Shown piece by piece: positions 34,879 to 56,849 of a stretch of 64,000 bases of DNA. How positions within the stretch are numbered: the stretch's first letter is position 1; every line of letters starts with the position of its first letter. Source of the DNA: an uncultured Coriobacteriia bacterium (GTDB lineage Bacteria; Actinomycetota; Coriobacteriia; Anaerosomatales; CAVYJL01); the NCBI GenBank assembly GCA_963768865.1, contig CAVYJL010000008.1, positions 139,580-203,579 on the forward strand, in the 5' to 3' direction. Position numbers and translations under genes: made by a program. The notes beneath the pieces were generated by a model, which did not search any database, was not told where the DNA came from, and saw only the letters and a program-made list of their open reading frames with translations.

Positions 34879-34896
34879 AGGACACCGGAGCGCGGC

Positions 34897-37423
34897 ATGT
34901 TCCCCGAATTCACACTCGACGTAAGGCTCGCGGCCCGCTACCTGTGGGGGCGCAAGCTGCGCACCGTCCTGACGATCCTCGCCATCAGCCTCTCGATCAT
35001 GCTCGTGTTCGGGCTGAACGGCGTCCTCCCGGCGATGCTCAACGCGCTGCAGAACAACTTCTTGGCCGCCACGGGCCAGGTGGATATCACGGTCTCGAGC
35101 GTGAGCAACGACACGTTCGGCACCGACGTGCTGGGCCGTGTGAGCAGCACGCCGGGGGTCGCGGTCGTCACGCCTTCGCTGCAGCGTCTGGACCTCCTCG
35201 GCAAGGACGCGCCGGCGACCTCGGTCAACGTGGCGGGCGTGGACCCGACGACCTACCTGAACGTGCACACGCTGGGGATGCAGTCGGGCAGGTTCCTGAC
35301 GCCGGGCGACAGCGGCGCGATCGTCCTTCCCAGCACGCTGGCGCAGCGCGCGAACCTGAGCGTGGGCCAGCAGTTCGAGCTCCCGGGCGCGAGCGGCTCC
35401 GTGAAGTACCGGATCGTCGGGATCGCCGCGGTGCCGGGGGCCCCGGGCGCCGAGTCCGTGTACATCACCCTGCCCAACGCGCAGCAGCTCTTCTTGCAGG
35501 GCGGCAAGATCAACGTCATCGACGCCAAGGTGGCGCCCGGCGCCGACAAGACCGCCGTGGCCGACGCGGTTCAGCGGCGCCTGGGCTCCGGGTTCAAGAT
35601 CGGCGGGCTGGGATCACTCGAGCCAGCTGCTCGCGAGCCTGCAGCTCTCCGAGAACGCGATCAACCTCTTTGGCCTGTTCGCCCTGGCCATGGGCGCGTT
35701 CATCATCCTCAACACCTTCCGCACGGCCGTCTCCGAGCGCCGCCGCGACATAGGCATGCTGCGAGCGATAGGCTCGAGCCGGCGAACCATCCTGGGGATG
35801 TTCCTTGCCGAGGCCACGGTCGAGGGCGTGGCGGGAACCGCCATAGGGCTGGCCCTGGGCTACGCCTTGGCGTGGGCGGGGCTCGCGGCGCTCAACCCCA
35901 TCGTGAAGCAGTTCCTGCAGTTCAGCATCGGCGGCCCCGAGTTCCCCGTCACCACCTGGGTCGTCTCCATCGTCGTGGGCCTCGGGATGACCATCGTCGG
36001 CGGCATGTGGCCGGCGATCCAGGCCAGCCGCCTCACGCCCATCGAGGCCCTGCGCCCGCAGGCCGCCGAGGTGACCTCGGCTTCGGTCACGTGGGGCACT
36101 ATCGCGGGCATCGTGCTCGTGGGGGTCTCGGCCATCGCGCTCGTGTCGCACAACGTGCAGCTGGCCTCGGCTGGAGTGCTCGTCTTCCTGGTGGGGCTGG
36201 TCATGGTGGCGCCGGTGCTCGTGGTGCCGGCGGCGCGCGTGCTGTCGGCCGCGGCGACCCTCTTCTTCCCGACCGAGGGGTTCGTGGCCGCGCGCAACGC
36301 CGAGCGCCAGCCGTCGCGGGCGGCGGTCACCGTGTCCGTGATGATGATCGGGCTGTCCATCATCGTGGGGATCGTCGGGATCATCACCAGCGTGAACGTC
36401 GGCTTCCTGAGCTACCTCGACCGGTCGCTGGGCGCCGACTACCTGGTGGTCCCGCAGTCGATCCTGCTCTCGGGCGGCAACGCCGGCGCGGGTCCCGGGC
36501 TGCTCAACTCCGTCAAGGCGGCCCCCGGCATCCAGGACGCGACCTCGCTGCGAGCCGCGCAGTCGGTCGTGAACGACACCGCGATGCAAGTGATAGGCGT
36601 GGACCCGACGGTGTATCCCAAGGTCGGCGGCCTCGTGTTCACGCAGGGCGACGCGAACCAGGCATGGGACGCGCTCAACGCCGGCCGAGGCATCATCCTC
36701 AACGGGATCTTCGCGGCACAGCACCCTACGCAGCTAGGCGACTACATCACGCTGCAGACCGCTCAGGGCGAACGCCGCTACAAGGTGGTGGGTGTGGCCA
36801 ACGACTATCTGAACGCGAAGCTGTCCACCGGCTACATCTCCCAGGCCAACCTGGCCAAGGACTTCAACGAGAGCACGGACCTTCTCATCCTCGCCAACCG
36901 CAAGCCCGGCGCCGACCCGACCCGCACCAAGCTCGAGCTTCGCAAGATCGTCTCGGACTACCCGACGTTCACCCTCTACGACTTCGCGGACTGGCGCACG
37001 TCCCAGCTGGACATCCTTCAGTCCACCATCAGCGTCTACTACATCCTGGCGGCGATAATCGCCCTGCCAAGCCTGCTGGCGCTCATAAACACGCTGGCGA
37101 TGGCCGTGCTCGAGCGCACACGTGAGATAGGCATGATGCGGGCCGTGGGCACCACGCGCGGTCAGATGAGCACGATGATCCTCGCCGAGTCGCTGATGCT
37201 CTCCACGATGGGCACGATCCTGGGCCTGCTCGGCGGCGTGTGGATCGCCTACGCGCTCGTGGGCGCGCTGTCCACGTCCGGGTTCCCGCTCACGTTCTTC
37301 TTCCCGTGGGAGGGGCTCGCCGCGGGCCTGGTCATAGGCATCCTGGTGGGCGTGCTCGCCGCCCTGCTTCCCGCGCGCACCGCGGCCCGGCTCAAGATCG
37401 TGGACGCCCTGAGCTACGAGTAG
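34897..37423 (+). CDS. FtsX/MacB-type ABC permease with two FtsX domains (~840 aa); one frameshift near 35610-35616
   Basis: ORF 34897.. (LAARYLWGRKLRTVLTILAISLSIMLV..) and ORF 35690..37423 join as ..FKIGGL|DHSSQLLASLQLSENAINLFGLFALAMGAF.. after removing one G in CTGGGATC. It has two RRRDIGMLRAIG / REIGMMRAVG FtsX cores. Confidence 0.8.
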
Positions 37424-40162: not shown

Positions 40163-43100
40163 CTACGGCCCGGTCGTCGATGTGCTTGCCGAGGAGGCGG
40201 GGGCAGCCAAGCGGTTCAGCACCACCCCGAGCTGCTGGATAAGGCTGCCGTACGTCGCGAAGTCGCCGGCCTTGAGCGCCGCCTGGGCCCTTTGGAAGAG
40301 CTGATTGGCGAGCACTGCGTCACTCGTGGCCGCTGCGCCCCCACCGGTGCCGGTGGTCGCGCCGCTTGGCGTCGCCTGGTTCGGACCGCCGGTCTGGGTG
40401 ACCGGGGTACCCGCTCCGCCTCCCGTGCCCGCCGGCACCGCAGCCGCGGCCTGCGGGCCGAAGATCTTGACCAACGCGGTCTCAAGATCAGGCTCCATCA
40501 CGACCTTGTCCGCGTACGAGACGATCACCCGAGTGAGCTCGGGGATCGCCGTCTGCTCGGCCTGGAGGTAGAGGGGCTGGACATACACGATCGAGTTGCG
40601 GATCGGGATCACGAGCATATTGCCGTAGATGACCGAGCTGCCCCGCTGGTTCCACAGCGAGAGCTGGGGCGAGATCACAGGGTCCTGGTTCAGGCGCGCC
40701 GAGACCTGGTTGGGCCCAAGAGTCAGGCGTTGCTTGGGGAACTGGTAGACGACTCGTTCCCCGTAGTTGGCCGGATCGGACTTGGCCGCCATCCAGCCGA
40801 TCATGTTGTCCTTGCCCACCGGGGTGAACGGGACCATGAGGATGAAGTCCTCTTTCGTCTCGTTGGGCAGGCGCATGAGCACGTAGAACGGCGCCATGGG
40901 CGAGCCCGCAGCCTCACCGGGCAGGGACCACTGGTCCTCTTTGTTGTAGAAGACCCTGGGATCGGTCATGTGGTACGTCGTGTAGACGTCGGCCTGCACG
41001 CTGAAGAGGCCCTCCGGATAACGCAGGTGGGCGCGGGTCTCCGCGGGCATCGCGGACATGGGGGTGAGCAGGCCGGGGTAGATCTTGCCCCACGTCTGCA
41101 GCACCGGGTCCTTGGGGTCGAACGCGTATATGTGCGTGGTGCCGTCGTAGGCGTCCACCGTGCACTTCACCGAGTTGCGTATGTAGTTGTAGCTCTGGCC
41201 GTTGGCCGGCTCCGAGTACGGGAAGTAGCTCGTGGTCGTGTAGCCGTCCACGATCCAGACGAGGCGGCCGCCGATGACCGTGATGTACGGGTCCTTGTCT
41301 AGCGTGAGCCAGTTCGCAAGCATGCCTATCCGCTCTTGGATGCCGCGATTGAACAGGACCCGGCTGGTGGGCTTCAGGTAGCCCGAGAACAGGAAATCAC
41401 TGGCGTTGTACCGCAGCCAGAACAGGATCCGACCGAACACCCCGCCGATGGGCACCCCGGTCTTACCGGAGAACAGGGTCTGCGCGTTCGCGTTGCCTAG
41501 CGGGTAGTCGAACTCCTTGAGATTGGTGTCGACGACCACGTAGTCGCGCTCGTCCTCGCCGAAGTAGACGCCGGGCTGAGTCACCGAGATCTCGGTGGAA
41601 CGCGGCGGCACGTCGCGGATGATGAAGTTGGGCAGTCCCTGCGCGCTGGACTGGTTCACCGGGCTCATGCACACGCCGTAGCCGTGGGTGTAGACGAGAT
41701 GCGTGTTCACCCAGGTCTGCGCGCGGTCGGCCAGGTTGGTGGTGTTGAGCTCGCGGGCGGAGACGAGGACTTCTTGCTTGGGAGTGGCGAACCCGTTGCC
41801 GTTAACGGTGCCGGGCGGCAGGGTCGCCGTGGACTCGGGCTGCCCCGAGTGGTGCATCGCATACCTATCGATGTCCACGTCCTTGAACTCGTAATACGGC
41901 CGCAAGCCCTGGAGCTGCTGGTACGTCTGCTTCACGACCGCGGGGCCCCAGAGGCGCACGTTGTCGAGCGTGTCCTTGTTGGCCACGAGCTGGGTCGCTG
42001 ACAGGTCCTCGGTGGCCGCGAACGGGCGGCCGATGACGTCCGTGAGCCCGAACGCCTCGCGAGTCATGTCGATGTTGCGCTTGATGTAGGGCGCCTCGAG
42101 GGTGACCTCGTTGGGGGCGACCACGAACGTCTGCATCGCCCACGGGAACAGGCCGCCCACGAGGATCGACGCTCCCACCCACACCGCCAGCGCGACTATG
42201 GGCAGCCTCCAGCCACGCGAGCGGATGTTTGCGATGAAGATGAGCCCGACCACTACGGCGACGACCGTGAGGATGTAGAGGGCGGGCAGCGACGCGTGGA
42301 CGTCGGTGTACGTCGCTCCCACTACCTGGCCGCGAGCCGAGAAGTCGAGCTCGTACGTTTGCAGGTACGTGCTGGCGGCGGTGACGAAGAACCACAAGCC
42401 GGCGAGCACCGACAGATGCGCCTTCACGTGCGGTGCGAACACGTTGCCCTTGTTCCACGGCCGGATGGCGCCGTCTAGCAGGTGAACCGCGGCCGTGACG
42501 ATGAGCACGACGATGAGCGAGCCCGACAGCCAGTCCACGGCGGCGCGAAGCGCGGGCAACCAGAACACGAAGAAGCCGATATCCAGGCCGAACTGCGGGT
42601 CGTTCATATGGAACGAGCTGGCGTGGAGCGCAGCCTGGAAGAGCTGCCAGTCGCCGGACATGCCCGCGCCCGCGATCCAGGCGAGCACAAGACACAAGGC
42701 GAGCAGCGCCCACCCCAGCCACTTCGAGCCGAACTCGCGGACCTGGCTCACGGCCTGCATCCAGGCGGGATCGCCCGCGCTCGGCCCGGCCAGGCGCACC
42801 TTGGGAGCCAGCGCCCGCGCGATGCGCACGTTGACGTAGACGATCACGAAGAAGACCACCGCGAACGCGAACCCGACGATCCAGGGGGACAGGGCGTTGA
42901 CCCAGAACACGTTGGTGTGGCCCAGGTCGGTGTACCACCCGTAGTCGGTGATGACAGTGGCCAGCCAGTTGACCCAGCCCAGGCCGAAGATGACGAAGAG
43001 CACGACCAGGGCGGCGATGATGCGCCCAGGGCGAAGCCATTTGCGCAGGTCGGGGAGCTGTGGCGTCCCGCCTCGGCCAGCTGTGGGGAAGTGGAAGTCG

Positions 43101-43222
43101 GGAATGACCTGTGGCTCCTCACGGCCCTCACGGCCGGCGCCGGTAGAGCCCGACCCGTTCGCGCGCGGGCGCGGCTCCTCGTCGCTGCCCGACCTTGTGC
43201 CTTTGTCGTCGTTCTGATCCAC
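40163..43222 (-). CDS. UPF0182 family large integral membrane protein (1,019 aa)
   Basis: Characteristic N-terminal multi-TM region (..ITDYGWYTDLGHTNVFW..) and a large extracytoplasmic body with VNTHLVYTHGYG and YVLMRLP motifs. The size is typical of UPF0182. Confidence 0.85.
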   Translation of the reverse strand: MDQNDDKGTRSGSDEEPRPRANGSGSTGAGREGREEPQVIPDFHFPTAGRGGTPQLPDLRKWLRPGRIIAALVVLFVIFGLGWVNWLATVITDYGWYTDLGHTNVFWVNALSPWIVGFAFAVVFFVIVYVNVRIARALAPKVRLAGPSAGDPAWMQAVSQVREFGSKWLGWALLALCLVLAWIAGAGMSGDWQLFQAALHASSFHMNDPQFGLDIGFFVFWLPALRAAVDWLSGSLIVVLIVTAAVHLLDGAIRPWNKGNVFAPHVKAHLSVLAGLWFFVTAASTYLQTYELDFSARGQVVGATYTDVHASLPALYILTVVAVVVGLIFIANIRSRGWRLPIVALAVWVGASILVGGLFPWAMQTFVVAPNEVTLEAPYIKRNIDMTREAFGLTDVIGRPFAATEDLSATQLVANKDTLDNVRLWGPAVVKQTYQQLQGLRPYYEFKDVDIDRYAMHHSGQPESTATLPPGTVNGNGFATPKQEVLVSARELNTTNLADRAQTWVNTHLVYTHGYGVCMSPVNQSSAQGLPNFIIRDVPPRSTEISVTQPGVYFGEDERDYVVVDTNLKEFDYPLGNANAQTLFSGKTGVPIGGVFGRILFWLRYNASDFLFSGYLKPTSRVLFNRGIQERIGMLANWLTLDKDPYITVIGGRLVWIVDGYTTTSYFPYSEPANGQSYNYIRNSVKCTVDAYDGTTHIYAFDPKDPVLQTWGKIYPGLLTPMSAMPAETRAHLRYPEGLFSVQADVYTTYHMTDPRVFYNKEDQWSLPGEAAGSPMAPFYVLMRLPNETKEDFILMVPFTPVGKDNMIGWMAAKSDPANYGERVVYQFPKQRLTLGPNQVSARLNQDPVISPQLSLWNQRGSSVIYGNMLVIPIRNSIVYVQPLYLQAEQTAIPELTRVIVSYADKVVMEPDLETALVKIFGPQAAAAVPAGTGGGAGTPVTQTGGPNQATPSGATTGTGGGAAATSDAVLANQLFQRAQAALKAGDFATYGSLIQQLGVVLNRLAAPASSASTSTTGP

Positions 43223-44634: not shown

Positions 44635-46814
44635 CGGGCCGCACCCCCCGGCGCATCCCTGCGCTGCCGGGCCTCGATGGCCGCGAGCGCGCGCTCCGCG
44701 GCCGGCGCCAGCTCCTTGCCCCTGCCCATAGCGCGCAGACCGCGCACTCGCGCGAGCGACTCCAGCAACGGGATGGACGAGGATCGCCGATCCGGCCCAG
44801 CGCGTCTATCGCCTCGGCACGGGGGCCGAGCTCTCGGTTGCCCTTCCCTTCGCCCGCGGCGGTGCGCTGCAGCACGCCCACCGCCGAGATGACCCGGCGG
44901 CTGCCTAGGGCGCGGGCCGCCAGCTGCACGTTGGCGGCGTCGGGATCGTCCAGAGCTGCGACGAGGAAGTCCACGCAGCGCGGGTCGGGCAGCGCCTCCA
45001 GCGCGCGGATCGCCTCGCGCCTGACCCTGGGCTCCGGGTAGCGCGCGGCGCGGGCGACAGCCGGGAACGCGGCCGGGTCTCTCGTACGGCCGAGGACGTA
45101 GACCACGTTGCGCACAAGGTACCAGCGGGGGTCGGCGACCCAGCGCGAAAGCTCCGGGATGAACCCGGAAGCGACATCGGCCAGCGCGTCCACGAGAGCC
45201 TTGCGCGTCGCCATGTCCGCCTGGTCGGCGATGACCTTGAGGATGGTCTCGAGCGACTCGGCGCCCAGGCGGCGTAGCAGCCGACGACAGGACGCCTGCT
45301 CGGGAGACCCGGGCGGATAGAGCCGCACCGCCGCCGCCACAGCCTCGATGGAGTGCTCGTCCGAGATCCACCTCAAGACGTTCTCGAGCGCCTTGCGCTT
45401 GATCGGGCGGGCGTCCTTCGTCGTGTGCCGCCGCGATGAGCGCCTCGGCGGCGTCGGCGGCGTCGGCGAAGTGCTGGCCCTCCAAGAGCAGCACCACGCT
45501 GTCCTCCAGGACGTTGACCGCGTGCGCGAACTCCTCCGGGCGGCGTTCGTGCGTTGCCACGGCCACGAGCGTGGCCAGGACCGTACCGTCGTCGATACCC
45601 AGGCGCGCCTCGTCGCGCAGCTGAGCCAGGTCCGCGTCGGTACCGTCCGGGAGGAGCGGGACCGCCGCCGCGAACTGGACGACCTCGATGGCGCTGGCTA
45701 CGGACGGGTCCTCGGGACGCGCAGGCGTCGCGACCGTGACCGATGACGGCATCGCCTCCGAGATGATGGAGGCGATGGTCTCGCTCGACGCGCCCTTGTG
45801 AGCGAGCCGTGCGCTGAACGCGGTCTCCACCTCGTCGCGAGGATGCACTCCCAGCATCTCGAGGTTGTGCAGCGCCCTGGCCAAGCCGGAGCGCGTGCGG
45901 GCGGCCGCGGCGTCCTGCTGAGTGGGGTCGAAGTCGGCGATCACGGCCTCGGCGAGCTGGGCGGTGTCCATGTGCGCGATCACCGCGGCGGTGGCCGGCT
46001 CGCGCCTGGCGGCCGGAAGAAGGCGCTCCACCAGGACCGAGCGCCGCTCCTCGCCCGCCAACGACAGAACGGTCTCGGCAAGCGACTGTTGGAGTTGCTC
46101 GCGATCCTCGTCGGGCTCGGTCGCCACTGCGCGAGCGAGTGCGGAGACGCGGCCCGCGAGCAAAGCGTCGGGCGGGGTGACTCCCCGCGCGGCGTCGCTG
46201 GCCCGCAGGTACTCGAAGATCACGTCGCGGTCCAGCACGACGCGCATGAGCAGGCGTCGCGTCCCGGGGCGGGACGCCGCGGGCCCCATGAGCGCGTCGT
46301 CGATGTCCTCGGGCGTGGGCGGCCACGCCTCTTGGGTCTCCTCGGTCACGACCTCGGCCGCGTCCACGATGCGCGCGGAGATCTCCTTGACGGTGATGCC
46401 GGTGACGCCCAGGTCCCACAGTCGCGACGCGAAGCCGCCGGCTGCGCGCAGCTCGTCGGGGTTGGGCACGAGCAGGCTCAGGAACTCGACCAGCTCGTGA
46501 GCGGTCACCCCCACATGGAAGACGACGGAGTCCACGTTGCGGCTGTAGAACTCGCGCGCGAACTCCACGTACGCGTCGCTGCCGGGGAACACGGGGTCGG
46601 GCCCGAACCAGATCCCGTCCCGGGCGAAGTGGAGCTGCATGGCCGGCTGGCTCTGATGCGCGGTCTTGAGCACGGCGAGCAGCGCGGCGGCGCGCTCTTT
46701 GGGCATGTTGCTGGCGGCCGGATACAGCCTCACGGCCTTCGCCGTGATGTACAGCTGCTTCACGAAGCGATCCACCACCGCAGGGACCCTGCCGGCTGAT
46801 GCGCCCTCGGCCAA
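44631..46814 (-). CDS. HEAT-repeat protein with LYPAAS N-terminal domain (cassette 1, ~727 aa); two frameshifts near 45401 and 44781
   Basis: TTG 46814 follows GGGGAGG. ORF 44631..46814 (N-terminal part and last 60 aa) and ORF 44186..45376 (PBS-lyase-type HEAT repeats: DPRWYLVRNVVYVLGRTRDP, EPRVRREAIRALEALPDP, DPDAANVQLAARALG) join. The junctions read ..DEGRPP|IKRKALENVLRWISDEHS.. and ..IDALGRIGDP|SSIPLLESLARV... Confidence 0.7.
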   Translation of the reverse strand: MAEGASAGRVPAVVDRFVKQLYITAKAVRLYPAASNMPKERAAALLAVLKTAHQSQPAMQLHFARDGIWFGPDPVFPGSDAYVEFAREFYSRNVDSVVFHVGVTAHELVEFLSLLVPNPDELRAAGGFASRLWDLGVTGITVKEISARIVDAAEVVTEETQEAWPPTPEDIDDALMGPAASRPGTRRLLMRVVLDRDVIFEYLRASDAARGVTPPDALLAGRVSALARAVATEPDEDREQLQQSLAETVLSLAGEERRSVLVERLLPAARREPATAAVIAHMDTAQLAEAVIADFDPTQQDAAAARTRSGLARALHNLEMLGVHPRDEVETAFSARLAHKGASSETIASIISEAMPSSVTVATPARPEDPSVASAIEVVQFAAAVPLLPDGTDADLAQLRDEARLGIDDGTVLATLVAVATHERRPEEFAHAVNVLEDSVVLLLEGQHFADAADAAEALIAAAHDEGRPPDQAQGARERLEVDLGRALHRGCGGGGAALSARVSRAGVLSSAATPPGRRVARDHPQGHRRPGGHGDAQGSRGRAGRCRFRVHPGAFALGRRPPLVPCAQRGLRPRPYERPGRVPGCRPRRALPGAQGQARGDPRAGGAARPALRGLPRRSSGRSRRRQRAAGGPRPRQPPGHLGGGRAAAHRRGRREGQPRARPPCRGDRRAGPDRRSSSIPLLESLARVRGLRAMGRGKELAPAAERALAAIEARQRRDAPGGAAR

Positions 46815-46971
46815 CCACGCCTCCCCACGGTGTCACGGCTTTGAGCGGCGCCTCCCCGCCACTCCCGCGAGCGGGGGCGCGCCGTGCGTGTAAGTATGAA
46901 ACTGTCGCGAGCGCGGTGCTATCATCCCACCCATGTGTGCCGCTCACCCTGCCGAGGCCCGCCACACGCGC

Positions 46972-47628
46972 ATGGTCTTGGCTTCCGCGTCGCCCAGGCG
47001 ACGCCGGCTTTTCGCCTGGTACGGAGTGCCGTTCGAAACCGCCGCAGTGGACGTCGACGAGACGCCCGACCCTGCCGTGGGCTCAGACGCGCGCGCGATC
47101 GCCGGCGACATCGCCTCGCGCAAAGCCAGAGCCGCCGCGGCCGCCTACCCGGGGGACGTCGTCGTCTCGTGCGACACCCTGGTGTGGCTGGACGGCGAGA
47201 TCCTGGGCAAGCCCGCCGACATCCAGGACGCCTACCGCATGCTCGAAGCGCTGTCCGGCCGGGAGCACCAGGTGGTCACCGCGGTGGCGATCATGCGACC
47301 TGGAGACGCGGACCCGGTGAACCTGGCCGTGGTCACCAACGTGCATATGCGGGGGCTGACCGAGGAGGACGTCGCGACGTGGGTGGAGGAGGGCGAGCTC
47401 CTGGGTTGCGCCGGCGCCTACAACATCGAACGCCACCTCGCCTACGTGGACGACGACGAGTGCTACCAGAACGTGGCGGGCCTGCCGCTGTGTCACCTGT
47501 ACCTGCTGTTGGCGTCGTTCGCCGAGATTCCGGCGGGAGTGACGTTCGACCGCCCCGACGCAGCGTGCGACGCGTCTCGGGGGGCGTTCTGCAAGCTGGG
47601 GCCCTGCATGCTCGGCCACTGCTGCTGA
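46972..47628 (+). CDS. maf: Maf-like nucleoside-triphosphate pyrophosphatase with a Cys-rich C-terminal tail
   Basis: MVLASASPRRRRL.., SCDTLVWLDGEILGKP, AGAYNIE. The last ~45 aa contain 6 Cys (..CDASRGAFCKLGPCMLGHCC). ATG 46933 is an alternative start. Confidence 0.8.
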   Translation: MVLASASPRRRRLFAWYGVPFETAAVDVDETPDPAVGSDARAIAGDIASRKARAAAAAYPGDVVVSCDTLVWLDGEILGKPADIQDAYRMLEALSGREHQVVTAVAIMRPGDADPVNLAVVTNVHMRGLTEEDVATWVEEGELLGCAGAYNIERHLAYVDDDECYQNVAGLPLCHLYLLLASFAEIPAGVTFDRPDAACDASRGAFCKLGPCMLGHCC

Positions 47629-47693
47629 CCTCCAGGCACCGCTAGCACCCACAGGGGACTTCCCCGCGCCCTGGACACCTCGGCGAAGAATCA

Positions 47694-47720
47694 TATAATC
47701 ACGTTAGTGATTTGGTGATT
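47694..47720 (+). promoter_or_regulatory. fic promoter -10 box with overlapping AATCAC/GTGATT operator repeats
   Basis: A perfect TATAAT lies at 47694..47699. It overlaps the palindrome AATCAC-GTTA-GTGATT (47697..47712), which is followed by a third GTGATT (47715..47720). This is an AT-rich patch, with RBS AAGGGAG before ATG 47744. Confidence 0.5.
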
Positions 47721-47743
47721 ATTCGCCAAGGGAGTGGCCCCGC

Positions 47744-48913
47744 ATGTACAGGTACACGATCAGCCCGGCGACTCAAGCAGCCCTCGGCCGCATCGAGCAG
47801 CTTCGAGTCTCTCTCGACGCGCAAGGCCCGCTGCCTCGGGTCTGGCTGGGCAGGACTCGCCGAGACCTCGAGGCGGAAGCCATCGCCGCATCGACCATCC
47901 TCGAGGGCGTTAACATCACAGTCGACGAGGCCCGCCGCATCCTGGCCGACGACCGCCCGACAGGGGTCTCGGCACAAGACGCGGCTCTAGTCGACGGATA
48001 CCGCGACGCTATGCGGTACGTGCTGGCGCGCGCCGACGCTCCTGCCTTCTCCTGGCAAAGCGAACTGCTCCTGGCCCTCCACCATCGTGTCCTTGCAGGA
48101 TCCCATGCTTCCGGAGCGGGCCGATTCCGCGACAGCCAGAATCGGCTGACGAACCGCGCCACCGGCTTGCAGGTCTACCTTCCGCCCCCGCCGGATCAGG
48201 TGCCCGGCGCGGTAGTCGACACGATGGACTGGCTCGACTCCTCCGCCGAGCCCGCACCGGTGACAGCCGCCCTGGCGCACGTATCCGTCGCGGGCATACA
48301 TCCGTTCCGCGACGGCAACGGCCGCACCGCTCGGATCACGGCTTCGCTGGCGATGTACCGCGGCGGCTACAAGGCCCCCCAGTTCACTAGTCTCGAGGAG
48401 TGGTGGGGGCGGCACGCCGTCGACTACTACGAGGCTTTCGAGTGCCTCGGGGACCACTGGGACCCGAGCGTCGACGTCACCCCGTTCATCGACGCGCACA
48501 CCGGCGCCCAAGTGACCCAGCTTGAAGCTCTTTCGCTTCGCAACGCCACCGATCGAGCTCTCTGGACGGTCCTGGAGGACGTCGCGGTCCACGACCTGGG
48601 CTTGCGCGAGCGCACCACGAACGCGCTCTACGACGCCTTCTTTGGCCGGGAGGTCACCAACCGCTACTACCGCAACGTGGCTGACGTATCGGATGTCACG
48701 GCCGCGCACGATCTCGCGAAGCTCGTGTCCTCCGGCCTACTCGAGAGCAGGGGTGCGGGGAGAAGCGCACACTACGTGGGCACCGAGGCGCTGATCGAAC
48801 GCGTTGCCGTGGCAAGCGAGCTCGGCCCGGAATGGCGCTCGCCGGGCGCGCCCTTGTCCGACCAGAGGGGCCTCGTCGTGGCCGGACTGGCTGCGCGGCT
48901 TCAAGCAGGGTGA
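47744..48913 (+). CDS. fic: Fic/DOC family protein (class II, intrinsic inhibitory helix) with C-terminal wHTH
   Basis: Fic motif HPFRDGNGRTAR. The N-terminal (S/T)xxxE(G/N) inhibitory motif is STILEG. The C-terminal wHTH-like region reads LVSSGLLESRGAGRSAHY. Confidence 0.9.
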   Translation: MYRYTISPATQAALGRIEQLRVSLDAQGPLPRVWLGRTRRDLEAEAIAASTILEGVNITVDEARRILADDRPTGVSAQDAALVDGYRDAMRYVLARADAPAFSWQSELLLALHHRVLAGSHASGAGRFRDSQNRLTNRATGLQVYLPPPPDQVPGAVVDTMDWLDSSAEPAPVTAALAHVSVAGIHPFRDGNGRTARITASLAMYRGGYKAPQFTSLEEWWGRHAVDYYEAFECLGDHWDPSVDVTPFIDAHTGAQVTQLEALSLRNATDRALWTVLEDVAVHDLGLRERTTNALYDAFFGREVTNRYYRNVADVSDVTAAHDLAKLVSSGLLESRGAGRSAHYVGTEALIERVAVASELGPEWRSPGAPLSDQRGLVVAGLAARLQAG

Positions 48914-48929
48914 GGGCCCGCGCCGCCGT

Positions 48930-49747
48930 CTAGCCTCGCCGCGCGGTGACGATCAGGCTCTCGTCGGTCATGGCGTCGAAGGCTTTGCCCGAGTGGTCCC
49001 CGTAGGTGGCGACATCCACGAAGCCGGCGCCGTCAGCCCATCCTCGAGCGCGCGCGAGGTGATCACCGTGTGCGGCCCCCTGTGGGCGGTAGCGGCCCAG
49101 CCCAGTTCCTCGTCGCCGGCCAGCGCGAGCGCCGCGTCCTTGGTGGCCGTCATGAACTCTATCCAGATCCGCACAGGGGCCTCGGGGGGCTCGAACTCGA
49201 GGAGCCGAAGGTACACCGCGGTCCCGCCCGGGACGTCTCGGACCTTCACCGGGAGGAAGCGCGGCCGCAGCTCCAAGAGGCGGTCGTGGTTGAGCAGGTG
49301 GAGCACCAGCGCCCCGCCGGGCCGCAGCACAGCGGCGAAGTCGGCGAGCGCGGCCGCAAGGCCGTCCGCGCCGTCCACGTGCGGCAACGCGTTTCCGGTA
49401 CAGGTCACGGCGTCCACTCGGCCCACTCCGAGCTGGGCCAGTCCGCCGAACCCGCCCTCGAGGAACCGCACGTCCACATCGCGCGAGGCGGCGTTTGCCC
49501 GCGCCGCAGCGAGCATGTCCTCGGCGGGATCCACGCCCGTGACCTCGAATCCTCGCTGCGAGAACGCGATGGCGTGGCGTCCGGTCCCGCATCCCACGTC
49601 CACGATCGTGCGCACCCCGGCGTTCTCGAACAGGCGCTCGAAGAAAGGCAGCTCCCGCGCGAGCCTGACGTCCCAATCCACCATCAGGTCGTAGTCCGAC
49701 CGGCGGTGCTGATGGATGTGGCCGGAGCCGTCCTGTTCAGAGCTCAT
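48930..49747 (-). CDS. Class I SAM-dependent methyltransferase; one frameshift near 49030-49040
   Basis: SAM motif I IVDVGCGTGRHA, post-I GVDPAEDML, and LRPGGALVL. The C-terminus is recovered from ORF 48930..49676 (..DGAGFVDVATYGDHSGKAFDAMTDESLIVTARRG*). Its ATG overlaps the upstream stop (ATGA). Confidence 0.75.
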
Positions 49748-50418
49748 GCGCTTCCCTTCCGTCTGATGCCAAGCCGACCCCAATCGCTGTTCAGGATGGG
49801 GTCGACAACGAAGTACGCGATCGCCACGAGCCACCACATGTTCGACGCCCAAGTCGGACTCCACAAGGCCACGATCATGGACGTGCCGAACACGGTGGGC
49901 GTGATGAAGGACTTGATGACGGCGACGCGCCGGTCGGCTCCGGGTGCCGTGAGCCCCGATGAGTACGCGTACAGCAGCATGAACAGCACGGCGATCCCGG
50001 TGAGCGTCATCGCGCCGGCGTAGATCTCGACGCCCAGCAGCGTGTTGCCGTAGTCGGCCACGACTTGGGTCGGGAACGGAAGCAGGGCGACGAAGAACAG
50101 CACCAGCAGATTGAGCCACAACATCCGTGTGTCGAAGCGATCCACGAAGTTGTACAGGCGATGATGCGCCACCCAGTACCCGCCGATCACGACGAACGAG
50201 AGCGCGAACGCGAAGAAGTTGGGCACGAGCGCCGCCAGCTGCGGACCCAAGGCAGGGCTTGCGCTGGTGGCGTCCAGCGCCGGCAGGCGCACGTCGAGGG
50301 CCAGCAGGGTGATCGCGATAGCGAAGACGGCGTCGGAGAAGTTGACGAGCCGGTCGAGGGAACGCTGGCCCCTCTTGCGGTCGGCGACGCTCTCGCGAGC
50401 TGCACCCGCCTCGGCCAC
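49744..50418 (-). CDS. TMEM175/DUF1211 family potassium channel
   Basis: Signature RLVNFSDAVFAIAITLLALD in TM1, with six predicted TM helices. Confidence 0.85.
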   Translation of the reverse strand: MAEAGAARESVADRKRGQRSLDRLVNFSDAVFAIAITLLALDVRLPALDATSASPALGPQLAALVPNFFAFALSFVVIGGYWVAHHRLYNFVDRFDTRMLWLNLLVLFFVALLPFPTQVVADYGNTLLGVEIYAGAMTLTGIAVLFMLLYAYSSGLTAPGADRRVAVIKSFITPTVFGTSMIVALWSPTWASNMWWLVAIAYFVVDPILNSDWGRLGIRRKGSA

Positions 50419-50428
50419 TTCGGTCCCC

Positions 50429-51346
50429 CTAGTCGTCGATGCGGAAGATCCTCGCCGCGTTTCCCCTCAGGACCTTGTCACGGTCGCCGTCCGAAACGCC
50501 CAGCTCCTCAAGGATGCGGCGCTGCTGGAACGTGATCCACTTGCGGTACGGGGCCGTCGTACCCGAATCCGTGCCGAAGAGGATCCTGTCGGGGCCTAAT
50601 GCGATGAGCGCGGCCTCGAAGACCTCGGGCAACGTCATCCGGGGCACGTAGTTGTCCAGCCAGTTGTTGGTGCCCGAGGTGTCCACGCACACGTTCTTGC
50701 ACTGGTACGCGAGCTTGAGCACCGAGTCGATCCACCCCGCGCCGAAGTGCGCGATCACGAACGAGCTCTCGGGATAGTCGCGGGCCACCGGCGACAGGTC
50801 TATGGGGTCGGCGAAACGCAGGTCGCCCGTGGGGTCCACCGTGACGCCGTAGTGGATGATGAAGCTCATCCCCAGCTCGCAGGCCGCATCGAAGAACGGC
50901 CGCGCGCCGGAGTCGGAGAGGCGGTAGCACCGGTTCACCGGGTAGAGCTTGAAGCCCTTGAAGCCATCAGCGTGGGCGCGCCGGACCTGGTCCGCCACGT
51001 CCGGCGCGAACGGGTCAAGCGACGCCAGGACGCTCACCTTGCCCGCCGACTCGCGGATGAAGTCCACCATGTACTGGGACGGCCCCGTGGCCACGACGAT
51101 CCCTTTGGTGATGCCGGCGTCGTTCAGCCGTTCGGAGTACCACTCAGCCATCTGCGCGGGGTCGAGCTCGGGCAGGTTGAAGTTCTCGCCGCGCCGGCCC
51201 CACTTGCGGTCCTTGACCGCCCGCTGGAAGCGCTCGGCCTGCGGCATCGCGGCGATCATCTCTTCCATGATCGCCAGCGTGAACAGGTGCATGTGAGCGT
51301 CTACGACGTCTCCGGGCTTGGTGGGAGGGACGGTCTTGGACGACAT
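50429..51346 (-). CDS. Amidohydrolase-2 (TIM-barrel metal-dependent hydrolase) family protein
   Basis: N-terminal metal motif VVDAHMHLF, later IAHFGAGW and the LFGTDSG Asp motif. ATG is at 51346. Confidence 0.75.
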   Translation of the reverse strand: MSSKTVPPTKPGDVVDAHMHLFTLAIMEEMIAAMPQAERFQRAVKDRKWGRRGENFNLPELDPAQMAEWYSERLNDAGITKGIVVATGPSQYMVDFIRESAGKVSVLASLDPFAPDVADQVRRAHADGFKGFKLYPVNRCYRLSDSGARPFFDAACELGMSFIIHYGVTVDPTGDLRFADPIDLSPVARDYPESSFVIAHFGAGWIDSVLKLAYQCKNVCVDTSGTNNWLDNYVPRMTLPEVFEAALIALGPDRILFGTDSGTTAPYRKWITFQQRRILEELGVSDGDRDKVLRGNAARIFRIDD

Positions 51347-51384
51347 AGAGGTCGTGGCTCCTTCTGCTCGGCTCGTTGCGTCGG

Positions 51385-52724
51385 TCACAGGCCCGATCCT
51401 TCTCCTGCCGAGGAGTCGGACTTGCGCGGCACCTGGTCCGGCACGATACGCGTGACGCGCAGGCGCGCGATACGGCGCCTGCGCACGTTGGCGACCCGGA
51501 TCCGCCACTCGGCATGCTCGAGGGTCTCACCCGGCTCCGGTATGTGCCCCAACTCGGCAAGGACCCATCCCGCGACCGTCTCGTACTCTTCGCTCTCCGG
51601 GATCTCGAGGCCGAGCTTCTCGTTGGCCTCCTCCACGGGGAGGCGCCCGTCCACGAGCCAGTCGCCGGCGCGCAGCGGTTGCACATAGCGCCGGACGCGG
51701 TCGGACTCGTCGGCGACCTCGCCCACGACCTCCTCGATGATGTCCTCGAGCGTGACCAGGCCTTCCGTACCGCCGTGCTCGTCCACGACGATCGCCATCT
51801 GGTCGTGCGACGTGCGCATCTCGCCCAGGAGGTCGATCACGCGCTTGGTCTCCGGCACGAACACGGCGTTGCGAACGTAGTCGCCGATGAGGTCGCACTG
51901 CCGCTCGTCCATGACGCACGGAAGCGTGTCTTTGAGCAGGAGCACGCCCACGATGCTGTCGCGATCCTCGTGGTAGACCGGCAACCGCGAGAACCCGGTG
52001 CCCTGGAAGACCTCGAGCGCTCGCGGCAAGGGCGTGGTGTCCTCGAGCATGACCATGTCCACCCGGGGCACCATGACCTCGCGCGCGGTCGTGTCGCCGA
52101 GCTCGAAGACCTCGGCGATCATGCGCTTCTCTTCGTCCAGCAGGGTGCCCTGCTCGGTCACGAGGAGCTTGAGCTCCTCCTCGGTGACCCCCGGCTTGCC
52201 GCCGGCGTGCAGGCCTATGACGCGCCCCATGACGTCCGCCGAGCGGGCGAGCAGCCAAGTGAGCGGTGCGGCGGCGGCCGCGATCAACGCGATCGGGCGC
52301 GCGACGACCACGGAGACGGACTCGGCACGCTGGAGACCCAAGCGCTTGGGCGTGAGCTCGCCGAACACGAGAGAGATGTAGCTCACGAGCGTCGTGGTCA
52401 CCACCACGGCGAGGCCGCCGGTGATGCTCTTGGGGACGTCCCACGCCCGCGAGCCAGACCGCGAGAACCTCCGCGAGGCTGACGGCGGCGACTGCGCTCG
52501 CGAGGAAGCCCACGAGCGTCATCCCCACCTGCACGGCGGCGAGCAGTCGCGAGGGGTCGGCCAGAAGGTCCAGCGCCACGCGCGCGCCCGCCTCCCCCTC
52601 CTCGGCCCGCCGACGCAGCAACGGGCGGCTCGCCGAGATCGAGCGCGATCTCAGCCGCAGCGAAGAAGCCGCCGATCAGGACGAGGACGAATATGCCGAT
52701 GATCTCGAGCAGGTAGGCACTCAT
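51385..52724 (-). CDS. CorC/HlyC (DUF21-CBS-CorC_HlyC) family protein; two frameshifts near 52640 and 52430
   Basis: The pieces 52398..52724 (MSAYLLEIIGIFVLVLIGGFFAAAEIAL), 51527..52621 (ISASRPLLRRRAEEGEAGARVALDLLADPSRLLAAVQVGMTLVGF..) and 51385..52407 (..LVFGELTPKRLG.., CBS pair, C-terminal transporter-associated domain) join in order. Confidence 0.8.
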
Positions 52725-52846
52725 GGACTAGAGCTTACCGCTACGGACGCCGTCACCTGCGCCGGGGGGCGCACGAGGGTGACGGCCGCCCTGGTGTGAG
52801 GTGCCGGAAAACCTTACCATCTGACGGGGCGTGTGGAGGGGGTAAG

Positions 52847-54875
52847 GTGCCAGCCGAGGATCACGACAGGAAGCGCGCAGCGGAGGCCGCTGTACGCGGC
52901 ATAGCCAGCGCTTTCAAGACACTGCGCCTCTATCCCGCCGCGAGTCCGATCCCGCGCCAGGCGGCGGACACCGCCGCGGACGAGGTCATGCGCCTGCTGG
53001 ACGGACGCGACTTCGCCGCGCTGCACGTGGAGCGCGATGGGCTGTCGTTCGACGGCGTCGCGATCCCCGGCATCGTTCCCGGCGCCGCCGACGTCGCGGA
53101 CCTGCTGCGAAGCCATGGTGTGGCGGACGTCGCGTTCACCGCCCCCTGCTCGGCCGACGACGTGCTCGCCTTCGTGACCGCACTGGCTCGCGAGCCCTCC
53201 GACCTGCGCGCGAGTGGCGGGTTGGGCCCGGTGCTGGACGGCGCGGGCGTGGGCTCCATCCAGGTGTCCGACATCGCGATCCTGCTCACCGCCCACAGCG
53301 CGGGCTCCGACGCGCCCGCCGCCGACGCCGCGGGCGGCCCCGTCGACGCCGAGCCCTCGGCCCTGGATGCCGAGGCCTCGGCGATGCTCCGCTCCGTGGC
53401 CAACGACCCCAACCGCCTGGCCGCCTGGATCTCCGGCGTCGCCCCCGAGCGCGACTCGCTGGACCAGGGGCTGTTGCAGCTGTCTTCTGCGATCGGCGGC
53501 GCAGACGCCTTCGGCGCGTCGCTGGCCGGCGCGTTCCCCAGGCTCACCGCGTTCGACCGCGATGCCCTTCTCGCGCTCGCCGTGGACCCGGGCGCGTCCG
53601 ACGGCGTCACCCGGGCGTTCGTGTCCATGCTCCCCGACGACGAGCTCGCCCAGGCGCTGACCAGCGGCCGCTCGGGAGAGAACATGCTGGCTCTGTCCAA
53701 CGCGCTCGCGTGCCTGCCTTTGGGCGGCCGGCTGGGACGAGTGATGGAGAGCGTCAAGGGGCTGCTGCCCTCGCTCGGGCACGGGGACAAGGAGATGCGC
53801 TTCCTCGAACACATGGTGGAAGTGCGCACCGCGGGCGGCCCGGACGAGCCCATCACCGACGCGGAACCCGACCTGGGCGAGATCGCCCTCGCGGTCAAGT
53901 CGCTGTCCGACGACTTCTCGGCCCAACACGCCGAGGTCGCGAGCGCACGTGCCGGAGGCTCCGAGCGAGCCATAGCCACGATGCTCACGCTGCTCGAACA
54001 GCAGCAAGACTTCGCGCTGTATTGCGAGACCCTGGACCGGATCACGGCCATGGTTCCCGGGCTCATCGGCGCCGGCGAGCTGGGGCTCGCGGCGCGGCTG
54101 CTCGACGAGCTCAGCACGCGCGTGACGGCCTCGCAGGGAGCCTGGCCGGGCGTGCGCGAACGTGCCGAGGGTGCCGTTCATCGGGCGCTGCGGCCCGACA
54201 CCATACGGGCGCTGCTGGACGCGGTGCTCGCCCAGGGTGACGACTCGCTGCCCGCCGCCCGCGAGATCGATGCGGTACGGCGACGAGGCGGCCGTGCACT
54301 CCCTCATGGAGATCGCGCTCGCCTCGGGCGACGGCCGCAACTTCGCCGCCGCCGAGCAACTCGTGGGCAGGCGCATGCTCGACGAGCTGTGCCGCGCCGC
54401 CGGGACCGTGCCCGCCAGCGGCGTCGCCGCGGTCGCGCGCAGGCTGGCGGCGGCCAGCTCCGAGCCCCGCTGCGCGGCGGCGCTGGACACGCTCGCGGCG
54501 CGGCCCGACCCGGCCTCCCGCCGCGAGCTCGCGGCGTCGGTGGCCCGCGTGGACACCCAGTACGCCGTGACCCTCTCCGAACAGCTGCTCTCCGACCGCG
54601 ACGCCGAGGTCTCCGTCACGGCGGCGCGCGGCCTGGGACAGAATCCGAGCGACGGAGCGTCCAGGGCCCTCGCGCAGCGCCTGTCGCAGCTGGACGTGGA
54701 CGGACGGGACTTCCCGCTCGCCCGCGAGATCGTCCTGTCCCTGGCCCGCCATCACGATCCGATAGCCATCGGCGCTTTGGACCGGCTGGCGGCTCGCCGA
54801 TCGCTCATCAAGCGCGCGAACTTCACCGCGCTGCAGGAGATCGTCCGTCAGGCCCAACACATGCAACGGCGGTGA
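52847..54875 (+). CDS. HEAT-repeat protein with LYPAAS N-terminal domain (cassette 2, ~675 aa); one frameshift near 54267
   Basis: GTG 52847 follows GGAGGGGG. The N-terminus reads ..FKTLRLYPAASPIPRQAAD... ORF 52796..54907 joins ORF 54162..54875 as ..LPAAREI|MRYGDEAAVHSLMEIALASGDG... The C-terminal repeats (DRDAEVSVTAARGLG, DFPLAREIVLSLARHHDP) are HEAT-like. Confidence 0.7.
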
Positions 54876-54903
54876 CGATGTCGGACCCTCGGAAAGGCCA
54901 ACG

Positions 54904-56223
54904 ATGAACGAGTCCGCCGAGCTTGTGGTGGGCGCGCTGGCGGCCGCGAGAAAGGCCGGGCAGCTGTACCCGGCCGCGCATCCCGCATACATAGAGGCGG
55001 CCCAGGCTCTCGCCGAGGCCGTGGCCGAGGCCGCCGGCACGGGGCCGTTCTCGCTCACGCTGTACCAGGGCAGGCTCTACTCGGGGAGCGAGCCGCTGTC
55101 GGACGACACTCCCGCCGCGGCCACCCTGTCGGGGGCGCTGGAGGCGCGCGGAATCGAAAGCCTCACGTTCGCGCCCGGATTCACCCTCACCGACGCGGAT
55201 GCGCTCACCGCGGTGCTGAACCTGCGAACGAGCATGACCCTGGACCCTGCCGCCGAGCTCGCCTCGCGTGGCGCGCGCGGCGTCGGGATCGCCGCCGTGG
55301 CCCGCTCCGCGACCAACGACCGGGAGCGGCGCGGACGGCAACGCGAGCAGGACCGCGCACTATACCAGCGCCTGCTGGGGCAGCTGCGCAACGTCTCCAG
55401 GCAGGTCGCCGCCCGCGACACGCCCGACGTCCGCGACGCGAACGCGATGGTGGGCTCCGTCCTGTCCCGGCTGCTGGAAGACGAGTCGGCAGTGCTGGGC
55501 CTGGCCACGATCCGCGCCCAAGGCGAGGCCGAGCTCTTCCACGCCGTGAACGTGATGATCTACTCGATGGCCCTGGGGCGGCAGCTGGGACTGCCCGAAG
55601 CCGACCTCACGGCGTTGGGAGTCTCGGCGCTGCTCCACGACATCGGCAAGGCGCAGTTCGACCAGGCCACGCCGCAAGGTGCCGAGGCCGCGCGCCTGGG
55701 CCACCCCTCGGCGGGCGCCTCGGTGCTCGCTGGGCTGCCCGAGGGCGAGCGCGAACCGCTGCTCGTGGCGTACGAGCACCACATGGGCGTGGACGGCTCC
55801 GGCTGGCCGCGACCCGCGACCGGATACCGGCCGCACCCCTTCGGTCGCATCGTCGCGGTGGGCAACCGGTACGACAACCTCGTGAAGCCTCTCACGGGAG
55901 ACGAGCCCATGCCGCCCGAGCGCGCGGTCGCCCGGCTCATGGCCGAGGCCGAAGGGCCGCTGGACCCCGTATTCGTGCGCCTCTTCATCCGGGCGATAGG
56001 CGTGGTGCCCATCGGGGCGTCCGTGCGCCTGTCCGACGCGTCCGTGGGCGTGGTGTGCGCGGTCGGCGAAGACGTGCTAACCCCCACCGTGCGGCTCGTC
56101 TTCGACGGTTCCGGCGCCGAGGTGGAGGACGCGCAGGACGTTGACCTCACCCGGGATCCGCGGTTCATCGCCGAGGTCCTGGACCCCGAGGAACTGGCGT
56201 TGGACCCGAGCGAGCACCTCTAG
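54904..56223 (+). CDS. HD-GYP-family protein with degenerate GWP motif (cassette 2)
   Basis: LLHDIGK, YEHHMGVDGSGWP, C-terminal GVVPIGASVRLSDASVGVV, and an N-terminal QLYPAAHP domain. Confidence 0.85.
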   Translation: MNESAELVVGALAAARKAGQLYPAAHPAYIEAAQALAEAVAEAAGTGPFSLTLYQGRLYSGSEPLSDDTPAAATLSGALEARGIESLTFAPGFTLTDADALTAVLNLRTSMTLDPAAELASRGARGVGIAAVARSATNDRERRGRQREQDRALYQRLLGQLRNVSRQVAARDTPDVRDANAMVGSVLSRLLEDESAVLGLATIRAQGEAELFHAVNVMIYSMALGRQLGLPEADLTALGVSALLHDIGKAQFDQATPQGAEAARLGHPSAGASVLAGLPEGEREPLLVAYEHHMGVDGSGWPRPATGYRPHPFGRIVAVGNRYDNLVKPLTGDEPMPPERAVARLMAEAEGPLDPVFVRLFIRAIGVVPIGASVRLSDASVGVVCAVGEDVLTPTVRLVFDGSGAEVEDAQDVDLTRDPRFIAEVLDPEELALDPSEHL

Positions 56224-56256
56224 CCCGCCGGCGCGGGCGAGTCCGGCCCGCCTCGC

Positions 56257-56619
56257 TCAGCTCTCGATGCGGAAGGTGCGGTCGATCTTCTCGAGCACAG
56301 CGGCGACGAGCGCCAGTCGCATGCGCTTGTCCGTGCAAGCATCGGCGAAGCGATCAACCGACCTCACGATCTCCGCCGAGGGCTTGTAGCGGATGAGGCC
56401 GCCCGCATTGGACAGGATGTCCGAGCGGCAGAGCTGCTCGAGGTCGTCGTCGAGGTCGTCGGGACGCCTGGCCCACTCGCGCCGCGAGTGCCCTCTTGTC
56501 CAGCACGGCCGACGGGTGCTTCTGGAAGAAGAGGAGATCTCCCAAGCGAGCAGCGTGCGGACGTGCGCGTCAACGAACCGCGCGAGCCCCGGATCCACGA
56601 GCCCTCCCGAACCTTCCAC
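56257..56619 (-). CDS. Small hypothetical wHTH-like protein (~120 aa); two compensating frameshifts (~56535 and ~56465)
   Basis: ORF 56257..56619 loses sense between the residues WEI and RRPDD. In that stretch the -1 frame (ORF 56354..56545) reads a natural LLFFQKHPSAVLDKRALAARVGQ. Confidence 0.5.
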   Translation of the reverse strand: MEGSGGLVDPGLARFVDAHVRTLLAWEISSSSRSTRRPCWTRGHSRREWARRPDDLDDDLEQLCRSDILSNAGGLIRYKPSAEIVRSVDRFADACTDKRMRLALVAAVLEKIDRTFRIES

Positions 56620-56849
56620 GCGCCCCTCCTTTCTCGCCGACGGCGACAGATTGCCGCTATCGGCGAGTCCCTGACCACCTTATATCCGTGGTCTGACAGG
56701 CGCCAGCACGCCGCGCGGGACGGCGCCCGGCGCAACGGCCGCCCGGCTGTCTCGCCGTACGGGTACCATGATGCGACGGCCCTCGAGGCCGGTCCGCAGC
56801 GGAGATCCCGCGCACGCCGCCCGGCGTGCTCGATCCAAGGAGCATGGTG

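Follow-up and report, generated by a model that had tools for sequence, protein, structure and literature searches.

A stretch of 64,000 nucleotides from an uncultured Coriobacteriia bacterium, referred to in the following as the window (G+C content ~70%), contains two outward-facing cassettes in which a gene for a HEAT-repeat protein is followed by a gene for an HD-GYP protein, and all four encoded proteins start with the same N-terminal domain of ~135 residues, here termed N-module. Judged by their sequences, cassettes 1 and 2 are two-gene operons, A and B, that arose as paralogues long ago; their genes are paralogous along their whole length, and the double cassette is conserved in a class-level clade of uncultured Actinomycetota. 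The first product of each operon (HEAT1 and HEAT2) would be a scaffold of ~660–730 residues composed of the N-module, a helical middle and HEAT repeats, and the second (HD-GYP1 and HD-GYP2) a metal-dependent HD-GYP phosphodiesterase of ~440–460 residues composed of the N-module, a long signalling helix (S-helix), the HD-GYP domain and a small C-terminal beta domain. In the overall picture that we favour, with a probability of roughly 55%, the N-module would be a pairing domain: the copy in the scaffold would bind the one in the hydrolase, and each HEAT protein would in this way dock, localise or gate its cognate hydrolase. HD-GYP1 would degrade cyclic di-GMP (c-di-GMP) or a close cyclic dinucleotide, and HD-GYP2 would still be a hydrolase but with another, or a less strictly specified, nucleotide as its substrate, for instance the linear product pGpG or a different cyclic dinucleotide.

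The HD-GYP domain is the least understood of the three domains responsible for c-di-GMP turnover, and the signals controlling it are mostly unknown. HD-GYP enzymes as such are known already, divergent ones included. A full-text literature search for HD-GYP together with HEAT repeat returned no relevant paper, and we found no description of a conserved HEAT-type partner, of the shared unnamed domain, of a conserved A/B double cassette or of an HD-GYP subfamily like that of HD-GYP2 (B-type), which keeps the metal site yet drops all base contacts. The locus supplies a partner protein conserved alongside an HD-GYP enzyme as well as an N-module that has neither a Pfam or NCBIfam entry nor a solved structure and that is also present in GGDEF cyclases. 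Moreover, the natural pair of A, which is canonical, and B, in which the recognition residues are lost and the metal site is kept, offers a clean test of substrate choice by HD-GYP domains.

Two paralogous operons and their conservation

Cassette 2 lies on the forward strand. HEAT2 extends from a GTG start at 52847, with a GGAGG ribosome-binding site 8 nt upstream, to its stop at 54875, and its product starts with VPAEDHDRKRAAEAAVRGIASAFKTLRLYPAASPIPRQAAD. Following a gap of 28 nt, HD-GYP2 (54904–56223, ATG start at 54904) encodes a putative B-type HD-GYP hydrolase of 439 residues, in which the strings GQLYPAAHPAYIEAA, HDIGK and HHMGVDGSGWP are found. Cassette 1 lies on the reverse strand and consists of HEAT1 (46814–44631), an open frame of 727 codons, and HD-GYP1 (44634–43246), which encodes a predicted A-type canonical HD-GYP of 462 residues with HHQRLDGSGYP and IADSYDAMTSERSYS and whose start overlaps the HEAT1 stop (ATGA). 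The two HEAT genes start 6,033 nt apart and the cassettes face outward. The original prediction, made from the sequence of the window, had described an inverted second cassette ~6 kb from the first and facing outward, and the coordinates, strand, gene order and 28-nt gap that it gave for cassette 2 were borne out, as were the quoted strings, LRLYPAASPIPRQAAD among them.

That each gene of one cassette has its paralogue in the other follows from comparisons of proteins and of family profiles. HD-GYP1 and HD-GYP2 are 29% identical over 407 residues including their N-termini (E 1e-34). Plain BLASTP between HEAT1 and HEAT2 gave a non-significant result (E 0.098), whereas profile–profile comparison by hhalign of HEAT family alignments built from related loci matched the two proteins end to end over 639 columns with a probability of 100% and an E-value of 1.7e-45. 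For the four N-module families (first 135–160 residues), all six hhalign pairings match with probabilities of 98.0–99.9% and E-values of 1.5e-13 to 6.4e-33, which bears out the earlier claim of an N-terminal module common to all four proteins. Given these matches, the resemblance is not one of low complexity, which had been named as an outcome that would speak against the duplication. At the DNA level, similarity between the cassettes is restricted to matches of 22–34 nt, and the protein paralogues are 20–29% identical, so the duplication is old, as the earlier remark on low nucleotide identity had anticipated. The Pfam families HD_5 and HD exceed their cut-offs in both HD-GYP1 and HD-GYP2. 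HEAT_2 (PF13646) scores 60.2 bits in HEAT1 and 20.2–22.4 bits, below its cut-off of 27.7, in HEAT2; it is found in 6/11 HEAT2 homologues.

Relatives of HD-GYP2 number at least 90 at cluster level, all of them ~438 residues long and 40–80% identical, and they derive from Coriobacteriia, Anaerosomatales and Actinomycetota metagenome-assembled genomes (MAGs). A scan of GTDB species representatives yielded 80 loci. Where enough flanking sequence was available, a HEAT2 homologue was found directly upstream on the same strand in 60/61 loci, and the opposite strand carries a HEAT1 homologue in 44/49, with a median distance between the HEAT starts of 5,875 nt; two loci (L049 and L069) also show an HD-GYP1 homologue after HEAT1. 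The question whether both cassettes are conserved together, raised by the original prediction, thus has a positive answer for 44 of the 49 related species-level genomes, in which the divergent layout is the same.

A less likely alternative, in our view, is that the two cassettes are independent paralogues without a functional link and that their proximity reflects a slowly rearranging region of the core genome. The genes between them have to be considered here. They were previously called unrelated, which is fair with respect to function; maf, the S-adenosylmethionine (SAM) methyltransferase, the amidohydrolase and corC are nevertheless syntenic, with order and orientation kept in ~50 loci, and this equal synteny of the intervening genes is what independent paralogues in a stable region would display. 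Divergent transcription from separate promoter regions is equally in line with it. Speaking for a link are direct tandems of the order HEAT-HDGYP-HEAT-HDGYP, without intervening genes, in a Nitrospirae MAG (L075) and an unclassified bacterial MAG (L080), and the occurrence of relatives that combine GGDEF, AAA_16 and HEAT as an overlapping tandem pair (L083). The second HD-GYP of the Nitrospirae tandem scores higher with the B-type hidden Markov model (367 vs 281 bits) and reads GFP and IANAYDNL. Single cassettes occur as well, namely in Longimicrobium, in Gemmatimonadales (Gemmatimonadota) and in Omnitrophota MAGs; there, the gene for a protein of 561–784 residues with N-module and HEAT repeats precedes that for an A-type HD-GYP, and the two often overlap by 4 nt.

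The shared N-module

The N-module comprises residues 1–150 of HEAT2 (52847–53296, forward strand), including the motif LRLYPAASP, and residues 1–134 of HD-GYP2 (54904–55305, forward strand). With the other three N-modules that of HEAT2 is matched by hhalign at probabilities of 99–99.9%, and L-Y-P is the sole near-invariant motif across the four families. The AlphaFold2 (AF2) model of the isolated HD-GYP2 N-module is of high confidence (predicted local distance difference test, pLDDT, 95; predicted template-modelling score, pTM, 0.89) and shows the element order a1, a2, b1, b2, a3, b3, a4, a5, b4. Searches for known relatives gave no match in Pfam (E ≤ 10) or NCBIfam, chance matches only in a PDB profile search (E 0.3–0.4), and nothing significant with Foldseek against the PDB, where the best match was the GAF domain of PelD (E 0.36, TM score ~0.2). 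DUF3391 (PF11871) was considered as a candidate and rejected, on account of an hhalign probability of 0.2% against the DUF3391-bearing proteins P0102–P0104, the lack of a Pfam match and a different order of elements. In DUF3391, two helices come after four strands (10.1101/2021.11.05.467447), whereas the N-module opens with two helices. The DUF3391-HD-GYP proteins Bd1817 and PA4108 (COG2206) nonetheless resemble the HD-GYP proteins of the window in being cytoplasmic one-component proteins with an N-terminal domain of ~120–135 residues, a long S-helix and an HD-GYP domain; in contrast to the cassettes, no HEAT partner sharing its N-terminal domain has been described for this family.

The N-module is widespread. 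Among 1.84 billion entries searched with a balanced profile, 2,977 cluster representatives carry it at E ≤ 1e-10, and their number rises to 9,086 at E ≤ 1e-3. Among the best 146 matches, most are HEAT-type proteins of 520–800 residues, some are HD-GYPs, and 20 exceed 800 residues. A class of ~1,400 residues combines GGDEF and AAA_16 domains with two tandem N-modules and a HEAT C-terminus. Taken at the level of domain composition, the N-module with its HEAT companion is repeatedly wired to domains for the synthesis or breakdown of c-di-GMP, and it tends to occur in twos, either in two adjacent proteins or twice within one predicted protein. Because the N-module recurs in GGDEF cyclases, it may serve c-di-GMP pathways in general as an element of assembly or sensing. 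Examples of the GGDEF-AAA_16 class are P0176, P0183, P0185, P0188, P0191, P0211, P0212, P0216, P0222, P0225 and P0242; P0205 carries SpoIIE in addition, and on L083 (1763–10332) two genes of this class stand in tandem with a 4-nt overlap.

Pairing of N-modules between scaffold and hydrolase would have its parallel in the GGDEF-AAA_16-HEAT proteins, within which two tandem N-modules lie side by side. A different function, which we consider rather unlikely as a replacement for pairing, is that of a ligand sensor: scaffold and enzyme would sense the same molecule independently of each other and the HEAT protein would have a separate output. A sensory role is generally assigned to the N-terminal domains of HD-GYP proteins (10.1101/2021.11.05.467447), the N-module, with LYP as its one near-invariant loop, is a compact alpha/beta domain, and its marginal top Foldseek matches are GAF-type domains. 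These matches are, however, non-significant (E ≥ 0.36, TM score ~0.2), and the strict adjacency of N-module proteins together with the tandem N-modules in GGDEF-AAA_16 proteins is explained more simply by pairing. Sensing and pairing by the N-module would also be compatible with each other. An HD-GYP enzyme that acts via protein–protein contacts with other c-di-GMP proteins has a precedent in RpfG, which contacts its GGDEF partners through the GYP motif (10.1101/2021.11.05.467447); the contact proposed here differs in that it would be made by the N-module shared with the HEAT scaffold.

Metal site and recognition residues of the HD-GYP domains

For HD-GYP2, the AF2 model (pLDDT 87.5) has the HD-GYP fold, an HD-superfamily fold with additional C-terminal helices, and finds its best Foldseek matches in PA4781, PmGH, Bd1817 and DvhD (E 3e-6 to 1e-4), plus PgpH; by sequence, PA4781, V-cGAP3 and PmGH are matched in the PDB. 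The residues of the active site were compared in 69 B-type orthologues of HD-GYP2 (40–50% identity) and 12 A-type sequences, using the numbering of PmGH from Persephonella marina (PDB 4MCW) and the residue roles given in the PmGH study (PMC4159591) and by Galperin and Chou (10.1101/2021.11.05.467447). The core ligands H189, H221, D222, H250, H276 and H277 are conserved in the A-type and 100% conserved in the B-type, where H213, H245, D246, H267, H292 and H293 of HD-GYP2 are invariant in 69/69 sequences; this includes the HD dyad H245/D246 (55636–55641, forward strand), which corresponds to H221/D222. The position equivalent to E185 is E in 9 and D in 3 A-type sequences and E in 60 and D in 8 B-type sequences, such that 68 sequences have E or D at E208 of HD-GYP2, and K225, found in all A-type sequences, is kept in 66/69 of the B-type as K249. 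Both HD-GYPs of the window thus share the fold and the six core ligands with PmGH. Of the eight metal ligands, HD-GYP1 has all eight and HD-GYP2 seven, the difference being N321 (55864–55866, forward strand) at the position of D305. This ligand is D in all A-type sequences and D in 47 and N in 22 of the B-type.

The residues for substrate recognition behave differently. Y285 of the GYP motif, 100% conserved in the A-type, is W in 24, F in 22, Y in 18 and another residue in 5 B-type sequences; in HD-GYP2, W301 occupies this position within HHMGVDGSGWP (H292–P302; 55777–55809, forward strand). The central tyrosine of HHExh(D/N)GxGYP is accordingly absent from HD-GYP2 and present in HD-GYP1 (HHQRLDGSGYP). 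D308 and R314 are likewise 100% conserved in the A-type; D308 is variable in the B-type, and neither R314 nor K317 has a conserved residue there. At K317, the A-type has Q in 7, K in 3 and S in 2 sequences (S in the window). K235 in the KPG loop is found in all A-type sequences, and this loop is 7 residues shorter in the B-type. Hence neither of the c-di-GMP base contacts, RxY[K/R] and KPG, is conserved in HD-GYP2, in which N321 is followed by RYDNLVKPLTG without an RxY[K/R] motif, whereas HD-GYP1 retains them partially as RSYS and KEG. In all of these respects, from N at D305 and W at Y285 to the missing R314 and K317 and the shorter KPG loop, HD-GYP2 departs from PmGH, which moreover carries a GAF domain at its N-terminus. 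Bd1817 gives the longest Foldseek alignment with HD-GYP2 (285 columns) and, like HD-GYP2, is devoid of the GYP tyrosine.

By these residue patterns, HD-GYP1 is a canonical HD-GYP, and HD-GYP2 keeps the metal site while the residues for recognition of the c-di-GMP bases are missing across the family. The motif of HD-GYP2 had been described as a degenerate GWP. Tryptophan does replace the tyrosine, but the position is a relaxed aromatic one in the family and not the site of a lesion specific to this gene; the loss of RxY[K/R], the KPG loop shortened by 7 residues and the change of D305 to N in the window and in 22/69 sequences had been overlooked and are more telling. Among A-type relatives, 7/12 (L070–L081) have an RxxQ motif at R314/K317. 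An RxxQ or RxxN signature has been linked to a preference for cyclic GMP-AMP (cGAMP), and RxxS is found in HdgA of Streptomyces venezuelae (10.1101/2021.11.05.467447). At the level of the motif, HD-GYP1 has RxxS (RSYS) in common with HdgA; HD-GYP2 differs from HdgA and from the RxxQ and RxxN HD-GYPs in having no Arg at that position.

The simplest reading of this pattern is that HD-GYP2 is a putative enzyme with a working metal centre and relaxed or re-targeted substrate recognition and not a receptor. That it is instead a catalytically dead pseudo-enzyme, serving as nucleotide receptor or as regulatory partner of HD-GYP1, appears improbable to us. Such a role would account for the replaced GYP tyrosine, the N at D305 in the window and the absent RxxK, as well as for an HD_5 score weaker than that of HD-GYP1 (46 vs 87 bits; HD reaches 36 bits in HD-GYP2), and receptors of this fold exist. 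DvhD from Desulfovibrio vulgaris (PDB 9RBZ), which was among the Foldseek matches and shares the HD-GYP fold as a divergent member used beyond standard hydrolysis, is a proven c-di-GMP receptor without bound metal (PMC13090378). DvhD has, however, lost both HD (SQ) and HH (MN), which HD-GYP2 keeps, and the six core His and Asp ligands of HD-GYP2 are invariant in the 69 orthologues, with the Lys of HDIGK kept in 66/69. Furthermore, PmGH remains active when D305 or the GYP motif is mutated to alanine (PMC4159591). Of the earlier suggestion of altered specificity or a receptor function, the altered recognition fits these data and the receptor is unsupported. The comparison of the two metal sites that had been proposed is hereby given, with core ligands kept in both proteins and D305 changed to N in HD-GYP2.

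Several points weigh against the picture of scaffolds docking two hydrolases of different substrate range. HD-GYP2 could still cleave c-di-GMP, because alanine substitutions at the corresponding recognition residues barely lowered the activity of PmGH in vitro (PMC4159591). The conservation of the A–B neighbourhood could partly reflect general synteny of the clade, since the housekeeping-like genes that lie between A and B are likewise conserved, and a shared ligand-sensing role of the N-module fits the same data. Moreover, crude neighbour-joining trees place both Nitrospirae copies together and not with the A and B clades, and the Nitrospirae double cassette may represent an independent duplication. 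A wider proposal is more speculative, and we consider it doubtful at present. In it, the N-module would be a widespread, hitherto unrecognised pairing domain of cyclic-dinucleotide signalling that tethers HEAT scaffolds to HD-GYP hydrolases and recurs in tandem in GGDEF-AAA_16-HEAT cyclases; the B-type HD-GYP would be a distinct enzyme class with a new substrate, for instance pGpG or another signalling nucleotide, and A and B together would form a two-step or two-signal degradation module.

Two further observations concern the HD-GYP proteins. A small beta-rich domain follows the HD-GYP domain of HD-GYP2 (residues 373–426; 56020–56181; GVxPxGxxVRLS...); it is modelled confidently and is kept in HD-GYP1 as well. 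A metagenomic protein of 1,250 residues (P0232) has an HD-GYP-like half without HD and HH, so a truly degenerate partner may exist in some cassettes. P0232 was also considered as a HEAT–HD-GYP fusion (Rosetta stone) and rejected as such: its middle part is off-frame junk, and it is probably a frameshifted gene call.

Frame breaks and neighbouring genes

HEAT2 does not form one open reading frame (ORF) in the window. The frame plot of G+C content at third codon positions (GC3) shows near 54.2 kb that the coding frame switches by +1, and the switch lies at 54269, where an extra G directly follows GATC at 54265–54268. The first segment (52847–54268; residues 1–474, N-module and helical middle) is supported by the GC3 plot and aligns with the homologues P0001–P0011, and the second (54270–54875; residues 475–675, HEAT-like repeats) aligns to the HEAT_2-positive C-terminus of HEAT1. 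In HEAT1, GC3 frame plot and three-frame translation show a frame switch near 45.4 kb and a switch back near 44.8 kb (near 45405 and 44788), which adjoin GATC sites at 45401 and 44789; once corrected, its product has ~726 residues. The in-frame continuations past the breaks are nonsense rich in Arg, Gly and Pro. These frameshifts had been overlooked in the original prediction, whose figure of ~675 residues for the HEAT2 protein agrees exactly with another contig but requires that base 54269 of the window be skipped.

That contig (L001, Logan, run ERR12035932), assembled from short reads, encodes exactly HD-GYP2 with an intact HEAT2 ORF of 675 residues upstream and lacks the extra G. It is 99.9% identical to the window, with five single-base insertions or deletions (indels; at 52641, 54269, 56470, 56536 and 57580 of the window) and one substitution in 5.5 kb; 4/5 indels touch GATC, and three of these turn GATC^A into GATCGA. 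Given an intact ORF on a contig this similar, the break in HEAT2 is read as an assembly error. Most likely, the breaks in both HEAT genes are GATC-linked errors of assembly or base-calling, neither frameshifting nor gene decay. They look like a systematic base-calling error at a methylated motif, a link that we draw from general knowledge of the error modes of long reads.

A biological origin of the breaks, by programmed ribosomal frameshifts or by true pseudogenisation of both HEAT genes, is highly improbable. It would find some support in the fact that the window has breaks in both HEAT paralogues and in neither HD-GYP gene. Yet the sites are not homologous between HEAT1 and HEAT2, every break abuts GATC, and corC is likewise frame-broken at a GATC, at 52641. 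Besides L001, all HEAT homologues examined are unbroken: the 11 database homologues of the joined HEAT2 are single ORFs of 636–665 residues with 96–100% coverage, one of which (P0001) reads ..ARDIMRWG.. across the site at 54269, and single unbroken ORFs are found in 60 HEAT2 and 37 HEAT1 homologues from related loci, with intact HEAT1 homologues of 636–731 residues. A shift site conserved in orthologues, as programmed ribosomal frameshifting would entail, was not found, orthologues and L001 being single ORFs. Programmed frameshifting and pseudogenisation were thus rejected in favour of GATC-linked assembly error. As a practical warning, indels next to GATC break real genes in this assembly.

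The block between the cassettes (46933–52724) holds maf (+), fic (+; 47744–48913), the SAM methyltransferase (−), a TMEM175-like gene (−; 49744–50418), the amidohydrolase (−) and corC/DUF21-CBS (−; 51385–52724). No counterparts of fic and of the TMEM175-like gene were found in the ~50 related loci, where the stretch from the amidohydrolase to corC is instead longer by ~1.9 kb. A scan of 52300–56700 for promoters and terminators gave no useful result. In corC, a second frame switch occurs at ~52400–52440, between the ORFs 51527–52621 and 51385–52407; it falls just outside L001 and has no GATC in view. Elsewhere in the window, at ~35400–35650 on the forward strand, the frame with high GC3 changes without a stop codon (frames 34879–37125 and 35405–37423), and this site may be another gene broken by an indel. 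Beyond HD-GYP1, a UPF0182 membrane protein of 1,019 residues (Pfam 928 bits) is encoded at 40163–43222 on the reverse strand, starting 23 nt past the HD-GYP1 stop. UPF0182 is next to HD-GYP1 in L049 as well, and cassette 1 may therefore be a three-gene operon.

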